A stretch of DNA of 64,000 nucleotides from Glycera tridactyla (lineage: Eukaryota). Position 1 is the stretch's first letter. Each line of letters starts with the position of its first letter. Made by a program: the position numbers and the translations under genes. The stretch covers positions 46,872,001 to 46,936,000 of the forward strand of contig OZ286476.1 in assembly GCA_965644265.1 (NCBI GenBank). The letters are read 5' to 3'. Shown one piece after another: positions 39,111 through 58,171 of the stretch. A model generated the notes under the pieces. It was not told where the DNA came from, searched no databases, and saw nothing but the letters and a program-made list of their open reading frames with translations.

Positions 39111-40140
39111 GATTCTCTGTTTGCAGATCCTGCCAGATTCAGAGGTGCACACGTATGCTGCCACGTTACCTAATAAAGATGATTCTCTGTTTGCAGATCC
39201 TGCCAGATTCAGAGGTGCACACGTATGCTGCCACATTACCTAAAGATGATTCTCTGTTTGCAGATCCTGCCAGATTCAGAGGTGCACACGTATGCTGCCA
39301 CGTTACCTAATAAAGATGATTCTCTGTTTGCAGATCCTGCCAGATTCAGAGGTGCACACGTATGCTGCCACATTACCTAAAGATGATTCTCTGTTTGCAG
39401 ATCCTGCCAGATTCAGAGGTGCACACGTATGCTGCCACATTACCTAAAGATGATTCTCTGTTTGCAGATCCTGCCAGATTCGGAGGTGCACACGTATGCT
39501 GCCACATTACCTAAAGATGATTCTCTGTTTGCAGATCCTGCCAGATTCGGAGGTGCACACGTATGCTGCCACATTACCTAAAGATGATTCTCTGTTTGCA
39601 GATCCTGCCAGATTCGGAGGTGCACACGTATGCTGCCACGTTACCTAATAAAGATGATTCTCTGTTTGCAGATCCTGCCAGATTCGGAGGTGCACACGTA
39701 TGCTGCCACGTTACCTAATAAAGATGATTCTCTGTTTGCAGATCCTGCCAGATTCGGAGGTGCACACGTATGCTGCCACATTACCTAAAGATGATTCTCT
39801 GTTTGCAGATCCTGCCAGATTCGGAGGTGCACACGTATGCTGCCATGTTACCTAATAAAGATGATTCTCTGTTTGCAGATCCTGCCAGATTCGGAGGTGC
39901 ACACGTATGCTGCCACATTACCTAAAGATGATTCTCTGTTTGCAGATCCTGCCAGATTCGGAGGTGCACACGTATGCTGCCATGTTACCTAAAGATGATT
40001 CTCTGTTTGCAGATCCTGCCAGATTCAGAGGTGCACACGTATGCCGCCACATTACCTGATAAAGATGATTCTCTGTTTGCAGATCCTGCCAGATTCGGAG
40101 GTGCACACGTATGCTGCCACGTTACGTAATAACGATGAGC
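39111..40140 (+). repeat. Tandem array of 67/70-bp units: 14 full copies plus the true exon start, each holding the hyccin exon-2 acceptor and 5' exon sequence
   Basis: Unit gattctctgtttgcag-ATCCTGCCAGATTC(A/G)GAGGTGCACACGTATGCTGCCAC(G/A)TTACCTAA(TAA)AGAT. Unit starts at 39111, 39181, 39248, 39318, 39385, 39452, 39519, 39586, 39656, 39726, 39793, 39863, 39930, 39997, 40067. Confidence 0.95.
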
Positions 40141-40187
40141 TCATCAACGCCCTCTACAAACTGTTTGAGGAGGATCTCAGCCAAGAG
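40083..40187 (+). CDS. HYCC1/FAM126: Hyccin/FAM126 coding exon 2 (ILPDSEVHTYAATLRNNDELINALYKLFEEDLSQE)
   Basis: Acceptor tctctgtttgcag, donor GAG|GTGGGT, 105 nt, phase 0-0. Aligns with the recalled human [34 protein letters not shown]. Confidence 0.85.
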
Positions 40188-43511: not shown

Positions 43512-45318
43512 ATTCTCTCTGAAATCCTGATTTTCAGTCATCTTTTCATTATGTTGTAGCTGGGGTGAGGTATTGTTGTCTTTCAAAATGAAAAATCCTC
43601 AGTTGTGACTAGCTTTCTCTGGAGACAAAGGTATTCTCGAGAAGAACAGACATTTCATTTTTGATAAGTAGACAATTGTCTCCTCCCAACTCAATGTTTT
43701 ATGCTTTGATGCTCTTCATCCTGGTATCCATGATTGTTCCACATGTTATAATAAATAAAAGTCGTTCAATCCAACCCCGTCAAACAATCAACATCATTCA
43801 GGATTCAGTTGGATATGATCACCTGGTTGGACCAGCAGCAGTGCATTCTGGGTCTGTTGAGATTGGTGTACAGATTTCAGTTCCATCACCCACCACCAGT
43901 CTCTGTTGGCATCATTTGTTGGATAATTGTAAATCAAGGTGCGCTTCGATTGTTTTGAGCAGGTGGCCGCTCAGTACCGACTGGTAAGCGAAGAAACATT
44001 TGTCGCACCAGAATGTAGTTTTTGGATGTTTGCATGCAGTCACTCTGCAAGACAATGCCGAACAAGTCTCACAATGCGGGATCGAGGGGGGGGGGGGGGG
44101 GGGTGCAGAGGGGGCAGAGCTTCAGATCTTCTAAGTGGATGGTGGCCCATAAACTAAAAATATCATCCCCCCCCCCCCACATAAAACCATGGGTCATCTC
44201 TTCATCAGTGGCTAATATGAACAAAATAAGCTGGGTCAGTTGACCCATAGTAGGAGATATTGATGGGTCAAAATGGGGAAAACAAGCCATGGGCCTAGGC
44301 CTACCAACAATCTGAACCTCCGAAGAGGACCTCCAGTGGTGTTGGGAATCATTTAATCAGAATCTAATTTGGTTGAGCAATTGTAGTTGCTGGTAAGTCA
44401 AGACTCAAAGAAGTGATTTTGAGACGTGGAGTTATGAGTTACACTGTAAAACGACTCACCAGATATTGGAGAGAGAAAGATGAATCTCTATAAAAACCTT
44501 GCTTCTGTTGCATCAAAAAGTGGCCTTTATGGGGATGTGGTCTTTATAGAGAGGTCCTCAACTGTTGAGATTACTACCACACTTGCAGCTCAGGGTGGCC
44601 TTTATAGGAGGTGTTCCTTAGAGCAGGTTTGACTGTGTTTAAGAGAATCGTGACTGGGTCATGATTAATTTCGAAAAAAATCCATTTAACAATGAGAATT
44701 ATCATGCTAAAAACTGAATGCAATAAAATGGACTCCAACAAAGTTGAATCAAAACCCAATTTGATTGACCAAATTGATTTTTGAGCAAATTAACTTCAAG
44801 GATTGTAACAGTTGGAATATTCTTTTTCCAGTTAGTGATTTCAAGCTACTCTTGCTGTGCCCAATGAGGTATGAATATGCAAAATTCCATCTCCAATGTT
44901 AGGCATACCTGTTCGGTCTGTCATCATTTGCAAAAAACGCTGGTGCAACCAACTTAGTATGTGACACTTCTGTTTCATGATGACACCTTGACACCAAAGT
45001 TCGGAGTCTCCTTGGTTTATGATGAGAAGCTCAGTAATTCCAAGTACTTGCCTAAGTTGGAGGACACCAGAACTTTGGTGAAACATTATCTGCGTGATCT
45101 CGGAGTGTCGGTCGAGGTCGAGCATACGTACCCTCTGGTGGTGTGAATACAGATGCTTGAAGATCAGGCTGAATGCTTTCTTCTCCTGTAGGCAAAGACA
45201 AAACTACCAACACTCGTCCTTTTCATCGAATATCAGTCAAAATCACACTGATTCATCATCATTCATTGTTTGTTAGCTATGGGTACAGTGAAACAAGCAG
45301 CAAGAGAACTCCCAAGTA

Positions 45319-45495
45319 CAGTCAAACCTGTCTATAAAGACCGCCTTCTGTCGCATCTAAAAGCGGTCTTTATGGGCAGGTGGTCTTTATAGCGAAGTCA
45401 TTTACTGTTGAAAATACTACCACAGTTGCAGCTTGGGCGGTCTTTATAGAGAGGTGGACTTTATAGATAGGTGGTCTTTAGAGCAGGTTCGACTG
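45319..45495. mobile_element. MITE family B
   Basis: TIRs and internal repeats. Confidence 0.85.
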
Positions 45496-49339: not shown

Positions 49340-49540
<201 letters not shown>

Positions 49541-50848: not shown

Positions 50849-52140
50849 CCTCCTCATCCATGTCTGGACTTGCTTGCGCTAGCTTTATTCAGTGGTGCCA
50901 ATTTTCCGAAAATTTTCGGAAATCCGAAAATTGGGTGAAAAATATTAATTTCAGAAATGGCTAAAATCTGGATGGGAGTTTCAGAGCAAATACTTTTGAT
51001 ATGTGAGGGTAGTTTCAGAAAATGTTTCCATATTTCTGAAAATTTAGCTTCATCTCATTGACATCACTGTTTATTAGATCATACAGATCTCTAGTCAAAG
51101 GTATGATTTACTGTGGTAGATAGAAGGTAGCAGTAGTCTTTGACGATTGGTGGTCTGCTTTAGCACTAACCATTAGCCACTTAGCCAGGGTCTAAAGACA
51201 CTGAGAAAACTATAGGCATTGACTAAAAGGAGTTAGGTTGAGTCAGATGAGAGCTAGGATTATATCCTCTCTTATCACTGTTACAGTCATGATAGATCAG
51301 AGTTTTATGTATGATTTGGCTGCTAAAAACTGATCTGTCACATCTGCCACTCAATAGACCCGATGGAAATGAAGGTAGTGGTGAAATTAAAGTCATCTCA
51401 TGCTTCTGGCTAAAGGATAAATGATTTGGCTAAAAATGAAACAGCTGCTTTAGCCAAATTTGCTATAGGGAATATTTGTCTAGTGCTGACCCAGATGATC
51501 CTTCATCAGAGAGAGGCGTTCAAAAATGATCCTTTCAATATCGGAGACTGTTCTCCTGGGAGACTCTTGTCATAAGACAAACTTGATTTTGATGGGCCCT
51601 GTTGTTAAACTCTCCACTCATAAAGGGTCATGTTATATTAGCCGGACTGCAGCGCCCTCTCTCCTTTAAACTCTTGTTGTCGGTAACGAAAATGATTTCA
51701 GTTAAAGACTCACCTGATAGGTAAGCCTGGTTTAACTTTCCATTTTTTGGAGAGAGCTAGGGCTATATCTTGTTGTAGGTTTCACTGTACTACATGATTT
51801 ATATCCATCGTTACTCAATGATTATTGGGATATGGTGAATGTGCTTCTTTCGACCTCATATTTAGGTCTGAAATGAAAACTATTACATAGATATAAATTG
51901 TCCTTGTTCATTCTAGAATTTACATATACATCAAAACCTGCAATAAGAGATTTGTGTAAATGTCACCAAATATAATCTCTCCGAAGAGTTGTCTCTCCCT
52001 TGAGGTATATTTGACTCTGTCTAAAAGAAAGTGTGTCCCAAAGACATGGTCTCCTGTTGGCTCTGTCACCTTTATTGCCCAACAGTTGGATTGCATTCTA
52101 GCAGCTTTCTACATTTATTCATAGATTGTCAGATTTATCA

Positions 52141-52289
52141 AGAATGCGCCGAGTGCCGTGTCCGTGGAGACCGTAAACGCCGAGTAGCGATCCCCGGGGA
52201 CGCGCGAGTGGCCGCAGGCCACGAGCGCGTCCCCGGGGATCGATACGAGGTGTTAAGGGACACCACAGACACGGCACGAGGAGCATTCT
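52141..52289. other. GC-rich 149-nt hairpin: 73-bp arms, 3-nt GCA loop
   Basis: 59 of 73 positions are Watson-Crick paired with no indels (aligned by hand). Confidence 0.95.
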
Positions 52290-55200
52290 GATCTTATCAT
52301 CCGATTAAACTTCAAAAAGCAAAGAAAACTACATCTGGAAGCCTTCAGAGTTTGGAAATCTTCATGAAATGAATAGGCACGTGATCGACGCGACTAATCA
52401 AACGGCGGATTTGCGTAGCGCGAATCTCCCACGACGTATCGCAGGTCGCCGACGCGGGCCGGACGCAGCAGCGTCTCAACATGCTAGACTCAACATCGGA
52501 TGATAATGAAGCATCTTGCTATACTTAGATGATTGACCATATTCGGGAATTTCTCATTGTATTATCAGTCTGTTAATGAGGACATGATATGTTTGCTGTA
52601 TGATTATCAGGAACATCTTGGTTTGAAAGCAATTGTGGACTATCAGGATCAGCTCATTTTATCTGTGTGGGATTTCCGGCAGGGGAACTTCAGTCACCAG
52701 GGGAGACAAGAAAATGTATTTGCTGTGTCAGGTGAATGGCTGAAATAATGGACCGGCATCATCTTCGGGCACGGACAAACTTCGTGAGATTCAATGACAT
52801 GGATTCTTAAGGAAAGACTTATAACATAAAATCCGGTTATTACCTCTCAGAATATGTGTACAGAGAATTTTTCAAGAAGAAAAATGTAGAGTTTGAAAAT
52901 CTTCGAAGTAGAAAAAGAATGAATTGACATGTAATATGGGATGAATGATAAGATTCAAGTCAATATGGTGCATGAAATAATTACTGTCAAACCCATTTAT
53001 TAATGCCACCCTTGGATGCATAAGAAATGAGTTTTTGTTGACAGGTGACCTCTCTACAGAGGAGAGTTAGAGTGTAAACCAGAGCCTGATGTAACCATGG
53101 TACCTGCAAGTAGCCAGTTACTACTGGAGTTCATGTTTGGCTACCAAAATTCAAAGTTAGGATCCATCTGTCCACAGGAGTTATGAGAACTACCAACCGG
53201 GTACCAGAATGCAAAATTTAGCTCCTAGAGTCATCTTGATGAGGGTTGGTCCGGCTAAATTATATATCAAGCCATGTAGAATATCACCAAAGTCGTGTTT
53301 TTAGGTGCTTGGCACTCAAAGCCGGTTCAGAATGTGATCAGAGCTGATGGGATAATTCATCCAGAGTGCTTCCAGATAAATGGGACATTTGTGAGTTAGA
53401 GAGGGTAGATTCCCATCCTCTTACTTGGGGAATTCCCAAGATGAGTTGACCTTTCTCTGTATGGCCCAGATGCAAAACATGCTGCTTCCATTGGAACCAC
53501 AACTCTCATTCAATATTTGTGTGAAACTAGGGAAAAAAAAATGAAAAATCAATATAATTTGAGTGTTGACGAAAAAAGCTTGAGTGGACCATCTAAAACT
53601 TTATGTAGCAGGAAAATCCTTCTGTTATTGGTGGGACAGAGTTAGTTGTGAGTGAGATGTGTTTGTGATCATTTCTGTATTGAATTCTTGGATGTATTTT
53701 ATGTAGCCGCTAGCACCCTCCGTGATCCACACTCTCAAGCTCATGTTCTGTCTTTATCACCACTGTGACACTATCACTGATTGTTCAGCATTCATTCCCA
53801 TTTACACCCACTACACACAATGTAGTTCAAACACAATATCCATGCTGAATTCAGGATATCATGAGCTTTCAATGAGCTGTGTTCATCTTTGAAATTGTTC
53901 ACTTATCCGCCTCTATTTGCATTCTTATAATCATGGATGATTCTTTTTATGTTATTTTTTGTCTATTTTTCTCTTGGTTGGAGAAAATCTCCAGAGATCA
54001 AACCATGCAAAAGTGATGATTTGGAATAGAAAAGGTGACTCAAGGAATGCATCTTGGATTTGCCGCCCCAATTCATCTTTGAGATGTGCAGGTTTTTAAA
54101 GTTGCATTCTGTTTTGTGAACCTTATTTAGGCTGGATCTGAAGTTAAGCTTAATGTGAGAGAAACTTCAGCAAGAATAGTCCTGTGTGTATAAAAGTAGT
54201 GATATACCATGAAGTAAGAAGGAAGAGTTTTTGGGGAAGTTTTGAATGTTGTAATGTGAGGAATCGTTGCTTGTTACCCGAGACTTGTAGCTGTTCAGTT
54301 TTATTGCGGAGAGTTTGCCTGATTTGCTCCGTTTCGGGGTTACAAACGTGCGATGTGTCATGCGTCGGATCGGGGAGACGTGTACCTGCATACGTTCACC
54401 ATCCCTCATGCATCTCTAATCACCAGTTTAATGCCAATTTGCTTTCAACTATATTTGCCCACAAAATAAAGTGTTGCTTAGCAACAGGTGTATATTTGTT
54501 CTGCATGTAATGTAAGTGGTGTAGGCTTGCACCATTTCTGAGCGGTTTCCCCGAGAGACTATTGCAGCAAAATAATTTCTCGTTGTTTGCTTCGGGTCCT
54601 TTTCTTGTTTAGGACCATGCAAGAATAGACAACCATGGGTTGTTGATGGTTGCATTCCCCAGCTCGAGCCAGTCTGCTGTGATCATCAGTTATATTTTAA
54701 TCCCCAACTGGCTGGTAACACCTGAAAGCAGTATACTTCTGGACCTGTCAGCATGTGGAGAGATCCGGGTGGGAAATCTAAACCCCTAGATTTGATGGAT
54801 TGCTTACTGTTACCATTTCTTTGAGCATGAAAAAGTTTGTGTCAATCACTTTATGGTGCACACTAAGTACAAATATCAATTTACTCTGGAGCTGCAATTT
54901 CTTTTCGAGCTACAGTTCCTTTTGGTTACCTTGGTGATGGTGAGAAGGGTATGAGTTGAGAGAAGTTAATTGAGTGGGATCCGGGCGCTGAATCCTATTT
55001 ATGAAACTTTCAAGATACTTGCATTCTTTTTAGAGATGTGAATCTGTATTCAGTGCCCATGTCCCAAATATTCCATTTCTGAATTCACATCTCAGATTCC
55101 TGAAACCTATTTCCTCCTGAATCATTCATCATAACAATGTTGATTCACCCCATTCTGAGACTATCATAGGCCTCAGGTTGATTGGAGACCTTTCTGAAGT

Positions 55201-56491: not shown

Positions 56492-56667
56492 CAGTGAAAC
56501 CTGCGACGAGAGACCGCCCTAAATGTCACCAAAAGCGGTCTCTCAAAACAGCTGGTCTCTCATCGGAGGTATATTTGACTATGTCAAGTAGAAAAGCTGC
56601 CCGGGAAAAGCGGTCTCCTGTCGGAGGTGGTCTCTCATCAGGGGGTCTCTCATCGCAGGTTTCACTG
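56492..56667. mobile_element. MITE family A
   Basis: TA-CAGTGAAACCTG...CAGGTTTCACTG-TA. Confidence 0.9.
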
Positions 56668-57296
56668 TATAGGGCTGTTGGTGTTTACATGGATATATCC
56701 ATGTTTATTTTGGATTTTGATGTGACAAAAAAGCCCCCAAAAAAGCGGGATGAATATGGTAAATCTGAGAGAGAAGAGCAGTTGGTGAGAGGCTCCTGTA
56801 TTCAACCACACTCGCTGCATTGTAAATATTTACAAAGATGCTTTTTTCCTTGGACCCATTGGTTGACATCAGCTTGAGACCGAACGAGGGTATCCATGAT
56901 GAAAACTTGACCGAATGCTCAGGTCAGGTCTACGCACTTCATCTCGGAGGTCGGGGGTCAGGCGGCGATAAATTAAGTGGCAATGTGATGCGGGCTTGTC
57001 TGTCCCTGCCTTGGCCACAATCGCTGATGTGCCACCCTGGCTTCCCCCCGAAATGATAGATGAGACACTAGAACAATTTACCACTTCTTCACCTCTATTG
57101 CTAGAGAGTCTGAGCTAGGGGACCCTGATATATATTGTAGACATTGCAATGGGATTATTCCATTCTTTGTGAGATCACACGGTTTGATTTTTCAATCGTG
57201 ATCTTTGTCTTCAAAATGATCGATTTGGTCCTCCATAAGCTGAACATAGTTTCATTTGATTGAATTTGAGAAATTGGCCAGGACCATGCTCCGTTG

Positions 57297-58000
57297 AAAA
57301 GCATTCTCTTCAGGCTTGAATTTTAATTTCCAGGCTGTTATGGCCAGTACTATTCTTTGTTGGGAAGCATTCTCTTTGGGCTTGAATTTCAATTTCCAGG
57401 CTGATATGGCCAGTACTATTCTTGATTGGGAAGCATTCTCTTCAGGCTTTAATTCAAATTTCCAGGCTGTTATGGCCAGTACTATTCTTCATTGGGAAGC
57501 ATTCTCTTCAGGCTTTAATTCAAATTTACAGGCTGATATGGCTAGTACCATTCTTTGTTGGGAAGCATTCTCTTCAGGCTTGAATTTTGATTTCCAGGCT
57601 GTTATGGCCAGTACTATTCTTTGTTGGGAAGCATTCTCTTTGGGCTTGAATTTCAATTTCCAGGCTGATATGGCCAGTACTATTCTTGATTGGGAAGCAT
57701 TCTCTTCAGGCTTTAATTCAAATTTCCAGGCTGATATGGCTAGTACCATTCTTCATTGGGAAGCATTCTCTTCAGGCTTTAATTCAAATTTCCAGGCTGA
57801 TATGGCTAGTACCATTCTTTGTTGGGAAGCATTCTCTTCAGGCTTGAATTCAAATTTCCAGGCTGTTATGGCTAGTACCATTCTTTGTTGGGAAGCATGT
57901 TATTCAGGCTTGAATTTCAATTTCCAGGCTGTTATAGCCAGTACCATTCTTTGTTGGGAAGCATTCAATTCAGGCTTGAATTTCAATTATTTTCCAGGCT
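57297..58000 (+). repeat. 66-bp minisatellite, about 10.6 copies
   Basis: GGAAGCAT recurs every 66 nt from 57363 to 57957; this explains the 22-aa periodic ORF 57316-58029. Confidence 0.95.
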
Positions 58001-58171
58001 ATTACATAGATAGGGAAGGAAGTAAGTAGGCATTTCTTTAACCTCTATGAGTACAAAAATACAAGTGTAACAATATCAATGACTGTTGATACACAGAGTT
58101 ATAGAAGTACCGGGTCATCACAGTGGATGCAGTCATCCCTATCAAGACAGGTATGTGTGTGATCTGTGAAA

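Follow-up and report, generated by a model that had tools for sequence, protein, structure and literature searches.

A strand-biased 149-nt hairpin at the left end of a gene-less Crypton-type transposon in Glycera tridactyla, a likely folded-strand recombination site

Analysis of a 64,000-nt stretch of the Glycera tridactyla genome (contig OZ286476.1, forward strand; hereafter the window) revealed that a 149-nt hairpin forms the left end of a Crypton-type transposon, 372 bp long, gene-less and non-autonomous. The joint explanation that fits best, and that we consider likely, takes this end as a folded-strand recombination site as well. The design of the hairpin and the footprints of the insertions suggest, without proving, that the recombinase inserts one folded DNA strand, as in bacterial integrons. 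We assign the element and its partners to the Cryptons, and not to Helitrons or viruses, with very high confidence. A preliminary description of the window had taken the hairpin for the end of a mobile element with a single-stranded DNA phase. The mobile-element end is confirmed by its boundaries and by dispersed copies, and a single-stranded phase is still the best reading of the strand-specific design and of the footprint. The class suggested at that time, HUH or rolling-circle, was not supported, as the partners are recombinases and none of 20 RepHel regions is bounded by the repeat pair of the element.

Structure of the hairpin and of the element

A sequence pairing check confirmed that the hairpin forms 73 gap-free pairs on the plus strand around a GCA loop (Table 1). 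Fourteen positions are non-Watson-Crick, 12 of them purine-purine, exactly as placed in the preliminary description. The three tandem G.A pairs lie 7/8, 31/32 and 62/63 pairs away from the loop, and the remaining mismatches are two single G.A, three A.A, one G.G, one G.T and one C.A. The folding z-score is -13.9, no equally good fold was obtained in 200 shuffles, and the plus strand reaches -68.2 kcal/mol vs -62 kcal/mol for the minus strand, an advantage of 6 kcal/mol. Tandem sheared GA in Py-GA-Pu context has special stability, and tandem GA is found in RNA as well. The d(C-GNA-G) loop is a known stable DNA motif (PMC3201870; papers given by such numbers are cited for the parts of their text at hand).

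Table 1. Features of the window element, its hairpin and its host target (positions are those of the window)
Feature	Position	Strand	Basis or remark
Entire non-autonomous element, 372 bp, without coding capacity	52135..52506		Copy alignment
Terminal 6 nt, TTATCA in the window, family majority TTAGAA	52135..52140	+	Putative recombination spacer, not a target-site duplication
149-nt hairpin	52141..52289	+	Folding and copy comparison
Tandem GA/AG pairs (three), C-GA-G context	52151-2/52278-9, 52182-3/52247-8, 52206-7/52223-4		
C-GCA-G triloop	52213..52217	+	Across copies and families C-G-N-A-G, N = C, G, T or A
Loop GCA	52214-52216	+	Closing pair C52213-G52217
4-nt linker	52290..52293	+	Predicted to form a 6x4 internal loop with the 6-nt spacer once a head-to-tail junction folds; L017 carries such a junction naturally
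Internal 12-bp inverted repeat	52294..52305	+	Same letters in autonomous L199 and L201
Interior	52306..52494		First ~60 bp like the 3' flank of the autonomous element; remainder family-specific, holds the CpG-rich block
Terminal 12-bp inverted repeat	52495..52506	+	Putative recombinase binding arm, predicted cut at its 3' edge
Host left half-site AGAT	52131..52134	+	Fits family target preference R-K-A-H; profile of 125 insertions
Host 6-bp target spacer TGAAGC and right half-site ATCT	52507..52516	+	Insertion profile

A genome search with the window element, in which 40 of 3067 candidates were scored (3067 is the number of candidates, not of copies), returned the window copy and 39 others at 92-96% identity; copies are many and are dispersed across the genome. 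A comparison of 30 copies gives as majority mismatches two G.A, one A.A, one G.T and the three tandem GA, which 28-30 of the copies retain. The window copy has inherited nine of its 14 mismatches from this family majority, all nine being purine-purine, and the other five are private or subfamily changes. Mismatches that are new in single copies are mostly of the transition type (54/77 and 41/61). Two further hairpin groups, with other stems, both retain the tandem GA at 7/8 and at 31/32; the pair at 62/63 is retained in one of them, and the other has A.A/G.A there in most copies. Hairpins with an inverted centre appear in single copies (L240, L312) and are the majority form in none of the three non-autonomous groups examined. 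Arm-to-arm correction of the GA pairs is likewise seen in single copies (L047, L189).

The two TTATCA motifs beside the hairpin had been proposed as a possible target-site duplication (TSD). The left one is the first six bases of the element, common to L002 and L003 at other loci in a small subfamily, and the right one is the start of the internal 12-bp inverted repeat. The CpG-rich block at 52370-52500 is the opposite end of the element. A TSD of 2-8 bp was found in at most 9 of 125 distinct non-tandem copies, and none is evident in insertions into tandem repeats (L002, L006, L029, L030); copies L002, L029 and L037 are located in microsatellites. The spacer equals the right flank over 4-6 bp in one of the 125 copies, and L008 is a single copy with a 6-bp duplication. 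Spacer variants match the target at 5 of 15 variant bases, the chance level for copying from the target. A MITE of a DDE transposon was rejected, since one repeat lies 159 nt inside the element instead of at its terminus and TSDs are that rare. The 4-6 bp direct repeats at both termini that mark the fungal and oomycete Crypton F and S types occur in only 1/125.

The window contains a Hyccin (FAM126)-like exon at 49376-49519 on the plus strand, 2.6 kb before the element. Later Hyccin exons match about 335 kb further along contig C47, with an equal-scoring match on contig C157, and the element probably lies in an intron of this Hyccin-like gene. Very abundant MITE-like repeats starting with TACAGT are present (for example at 2204-2385, 4495-4593, 45314-45495 and 56511-56672), as are tandem arrays at 33654-34078 (20-bp unit), 38974-40159 (67/70 bp) and 57143-58102 (66 bp). 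Elsewhere in the genome there are many long open RepHel frames, some of them in tandem (L065/L066 with a period of ~7.8 kb, L072/L073 with ~6.2 kb). About 1.5 kb upstream of one RepHel ORF, and on its sense strand, a 73-nt branched hairpin with several short stems and GNA-type loops was found (L108, 4047-4119, minus strand), which is possibly a Helitron-like end or another folded-DNA element.

Recombinase partners and recurrence of the hairpin design

Hairpins of about 150 nt beside recombinase ORFs were first met in a genome search for DUF3504, in which 150 of 990 candidates were scored and 77 loci were examined. Two autonomous relatives of 2.7 kb, L199 and L201, carry the exact 12-bp repeat pair of the window element around an ORF of 577 and 581 aa, respectively, with the hairpin at the same end. 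They are 72% identical to the window element over 214 bp and share 21 of 23 bases at the other end. In L202, a third relative, the terminal repeat is present and the hairpin end is damaged, and L198 has one mismatch in a repeat. The window element is not a direct deletion derivative of the autonomous copies found; these are only about 72% like its family, so they need not include its exact mobiliser. The search for linked ORFs placed a tyrosine recombinase in the longer elements, and none of the 20 RepHel regions examined was bounded by these ends.

The 2.7-kb L199 element has one long ORF whose Pfam matches are recombinase-related only, with E-values of 9.5e-24 for DUF3504 and 1.3e-9 for Phage_integrase; no reverse transcriptase, DDE or C-terminal domain was found in it by Pfam. 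The recombinase gene of the L199 family probably has two exons. DUF3504 matched in three of three ORFs (E 7e-24 to 1e-23). The residues R, K, H-x-x-R, H and Y, which we take to be the tyrosine-recombinase catalytic residues, are present in 16 of 16 aligned ORFs. By sequence, the closest solved relatives are QRICH1 and XerA. The structure model (pLDDT 80.9) matches the folds of QRICH1, Cre, XerA, IntI and the Tn1549 integrase, and is nearer to Cre than to IntI. Judged from these sequences, and from a tree that holds ORFs of this genome only, the element appears to belong with the DUF3504/CryptonA-type transposons. Fragments of the element ends and of the ORF were also found in four sequencing-run contig sets, each a small share of its run.

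Among the 77 loci, 71 had a qualifying ORF, falling into 23 recombinase clusters. The strict core GA-stem-GNA-stem-GA was found 395-1085 nt downstream of 35 of the 71 ORFs on the antisense strand, and downstream of none of the 71 on the sense strand. The hairpin is present in 15 of the 23 clusters and absent downstream in 36/71 ORFs and 8/23 clusters, several of the negative loci being visibly deleted (L157, L197). A tree of 27 representatives places it in two deep recombinase clades, with a third clade lacking it. No hairpin was found at 26 metagenome recombinase loci, which is a weak negative, as 11 of them had fewer than 500 bases past the match and assemblies may break at palindromes. Further arrangements were seen among the recombinase loci. 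The L155, L158 and L186 clusters form a divergent DUF3504 clade with intact catalytic motifs, different repeat-rich ends and no long hairpin. In L133, L140, L156, L169 and their relatives, the far terminus upstream of the ORF is a hairpin too, perfect over 16-17 bp, capped by a GNA loop and located on the strand that carries the long hairpin. In L175 (G000:C18:102203000-102212999), recombinase ORFs are repeated in tandem about every 2.44 kb, and the hairpin is absent.

In 13 family representatives, each the most intact hairpin of its cluster, 85 mismatches are purine-purine vs 7 pyrimidine-pyrimidine, and 22 are G.T vs 5 A.C; p-values for this skew are overstated, as the 13 families are related. 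Whether DNA or RNA parameters are used, the antisense strand is the better folder in each of the 13 families; for the window copy, RNA parameters favour the same strand as well. Eight families share the same register at arm identities of 38-96%. In these, 501 of 576 cells are Watson-Crick, 50 of the 72 positions in the stem carry at least two Watson-Crick pair types, and all eight families retain the tandem GA at 5/6. Template switching in palindromes can mechanically produce paired stem changes, and therefore covariation alone is no proof of selection. The persistence of the GA pairs, despite correction and central inversion in single copies, is the stronger point. The earlier idea that the asymmetry was selected for folding of one strand thus stands in that the asymmetry is conserved, strand-specific and outlasts the turnover of the stem; it does not extend to the five private or subfamily mismatches of the window copy.

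Insertion footprint, proposed mechanism and alternative readings

Over the 125 distinct non-tandem insertions, the host consensus reads G-R-K-A-H on the left of the element and D-T-M-Y on its right, at +7 to +10. The target bias covers -5 to -1 and +7 to +10, is mild at +1 to +3 and is absent at +4 to +6. The target is a dyad with the best correlation at a spacer of 6 (r 0.82), and the empty site at the window locus, AGAT-N6-ATCT, is a perfect one. A 6-bp-spaced dyad is the geometry of a tyrosine-recombinase site. The left half of the target resembles the end of the element's own repeat. Head-to-tail stacking or nesting at element ends was observed even between families (L017, L259, L142, L147, L156, L025/L031), as expected if the terminal repeat is a good target half-site.

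The footprint is one-sided. Of the 125 copies, 124 have the element's spacer on the left, among them 69 of 69 recovered with queries that lack this end, and the reciprocal footprint was found in none of the 125; four right flanks are spacer-like within one mismatch, which is about chance. Two exchanges with unmatched spacers, followed by replication, would give two product classes in about equal number, vs the single class that holds 124 of the 125. The absence of the reciprocal footprint argues against the symmetric two-strand exchange of the published Crypton model, and no free circle of the element was observed. On the plus strand the junction coincides with the 5' edge of the spacer, and a cut by 3'-phosphotyrosine chemistry would be expected at such an edge (PMC4246890). 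Based on both, we infer that the exchanged strand is the one with the stabilising motifs. Folding of the natural head-to-tail junctions pairs the terminal repeat with the internal repeat and closes the rod. The junction loop is 6x4 in L017 and a 2-nt bulge in L142, with a 2-nt excess on the 5' side in the two unrelated families. Pairing between target and linker (microhomology) went in the predicted direction in four of four comparisons with p-values of 0.05-0.40, none of them significant.

By analogy with known single-strand systems, we propose that the recombination site of the element is probably one folded DNA strand. The single strand might first be set free at a replication fork or through one-strand excision. 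Upon joining of the ends as a circle or a tandem, the plus strand would fold, with the terminal repeat pairing with the internal repeat. The fold would consist of a duplex binding arm, an unpaired spacer of 6x4 nt and a long rod, which sheared G.A pairs and the GNA loop would stabilise on the plus strand only. The recombinase would then cut the plus strand at the border of arm and spacer through 3'-phosphotyrosine chemistry, and the single cut strand would be exchanged with a double-stranded pseudo-site in the host. Resolution of the junction by replication might yield an oriented, TSD-less insertion that increases copy number. The one-sided footprint fits an exchange of the plus strand only, which is the stably folding one. 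We also lean, by a narrower judgement, towards extending this to a major clade of animal Cryptons, which might be single-strand recombinase transposons in which one strand is peeled out, folded and pasted by a single exchange, the identity of that strand being written in the sheared G.A pairs and the GNA loop.

A possible but rather unlikely alternative is that the Crypton end works as double-stranded DNA, a double-stranded circle exchanging either one strand pair, in the mode of the VGJ phage, or both. The palindrome would then be an array of accessory binding sites, a cruciform or a replication signal, with GA/GA as direct-repeat CGAG motifs for a protein and the arms kept alike by template switching. 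The CGAG context is indeed conserved in sequence among the families, and none of the microhomology comparisons is significant. According to a 2026 review, Crypton transposition has not been shown experimentally and a double-stranded circle is assumed (PMC13565253). One-pair exchange from double-stranded DNA exists in the VGJ phage and would be expected to give the same one-sided footprint (PMC4246890). However, such use gives no account of the internal repeat that completes the junction fold, the conserved 2-nt offset, the C-GNA-G loop with its free N, or the same-strand skew of G.T over A.C, and no reason why the exchanged strand should be the stably folding one.

Action of the hairpin as RNA, whether an antisense transcript, a small-RNA precursor or a regulatory rod, is very unlikely. 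The strand preference with RNA parameters in all 13 families and the window copy, the skew of G.T wobbles to that strand and the occurrence of tandem GA in RNA would suit it, but folding energies do not decide between DNA and RNA, because the same strand is favoured with both parameter sets. The Rfam search of the hairpin found no family at threshold (best match MIR531, 33.7 vs 70 bits). The rod-like RNA of the preliminary description is not supported. The stems are gap-free with few wobbles, the structure is complete only across the joined ends of the element, the partner ORF has no reverse transcriptase, and the GNA triloop is a DNA motif (PMC3201870).

A neutral origin, in which a founder palindrome decayed once and was then amplified or mismatches overlooked by repair accumulated, is extremely improbable. 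It would cover the five window mismatches that are decay and the arm-to-arm correction of GA in single copies, but not the persistence of the same tandem positions in families whose arms are only ~40% identical and across two deep clades of the recombinase.

We give next to no credence to a RepHel-mobilised Helentron of the non-autonomous kind (HLE2/HINE), whose terminal stem-loop would be oversized. This was the first guess from the anatomy, as asymmetric 12-bp inverted repeats, a terminal stem-loop, head-to-tail tandems and the lack of a TSD are HLE2-like (PMC11417382, PMC4067079) and the genome has many RepHel ORFs. It was dropped as largely refuted when RepHel regions (20 of 20 kb each, family representatives from 104 matches) proved in no case to be bounded by the repeat pair, one of them containing an internally deleted non-autonomous copy, and recombinase ORFs were found flanked by the same repeats. 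The target is a 6-bp-spaced dyad and not T|T, and palindromes of HINE are 5-10 bp in the cited text. A parvovirus-like endogenous element, also raised by the preliminary description, was rejected, as no long ORF lies beside the window copy and the partner is a tyrosine recombinase.

Significance and comparison with known systems

If the folded-strand reading is true, integron and CTX-phage recombination would have a counterpart in eukaryotes, the assumption of a double-stranded circle would be replaced, and a compact enzyme that integrates folded single-stranded DNA without homology would be available. A eukaryotic single-strand tyrosine recombinase would be new, and possibly useful for the integration of single-stranded DNA. 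With the intact enzyme ORF, the exact ends, the target consensus and the predicted strand and position of the cut that the locus and its relatives provide, the Crypton mechanism is now directly assayable with oligonucleotides. For annotation, asymmetric repeats with a stem-loop need not mean a Helentron, and such hairpins can mimic miRNA precursors.

In the literature searched, no description of hairpin ends or single-strand substrates of Cryptons was found; Repbase Reports and supplements, which were outside its scope, may show such ends. Kojima and Jurka (2011) found neither terminal repeats nor 4-6 bp direct repeats in animal Cryptons (PMC3212892), and the main text of that paper contains no occurrence of hairpin, stem or palindrom-; hairpin and stem-loop do not occur in the part of the Glomhopper paper at hand. 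Similar to CryptonA (PMC3212892), the elements here have a lone DUF3504-type tyrosine recombinase with the catalytic tetrad, an animal host, abundant gene-less derivatives and no regular TSD. They differ in the asymmetric 12-bp inverted repeat pair, the 149-nt strand-biased hairpin and the dyad target. CryptonV (Kapitonov and Jurka 2012, cited in PMC8869645) are likewise animal recombinase transposons, some copies here lie in microsatellites, and that report may already describe such ends. With Helentron/HLE2 elements (DINE-1, HINE; PMC4067079, PMC11417382) the element shares short asymmetric inverted repeats, a terminal stem-loop and the lack of a TSD, whereas theirs is a HUH/helicase enzyme, a T|T target and a short palindrome.

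In the text at hand of the attC paper, IntI and XerC/XerD are the only tyrosine recombinases named as users of single-stranded substrates (PMC5027507). Integron attC/IntI and the proposed site have in common an imperfect single-strand hairpin as the recombinase substrate, one exchange resolved by replication, a purine and G.T skew on the used strand, a 3-nt loop of the GAA type and an unpaired spacer of 5-6 nt (PMC5027507). attC belongs to a bacterial cassette system with extrahelical bases and conserved AAC microhomology (PMC5027507), whereas the system here is a eukaryotic transposon whose G.A pairs come in tandem and whose targets are degenerate, without clear microhomology, its mechanism being inferred only. 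Another parallel is the attP(+) site of the CTX phage used by XerCD, in which a fold-back of ~150 nt with two inverted sites is a one-strand recombination site, one strand pair is exchanged and replication completes the reaction (PMC4246890). CTX depends on host recombinases and on a fixed dif target that needs homology (PMC4246890), whereas the element described here has an enzyme of its own and inserts genome-wide.
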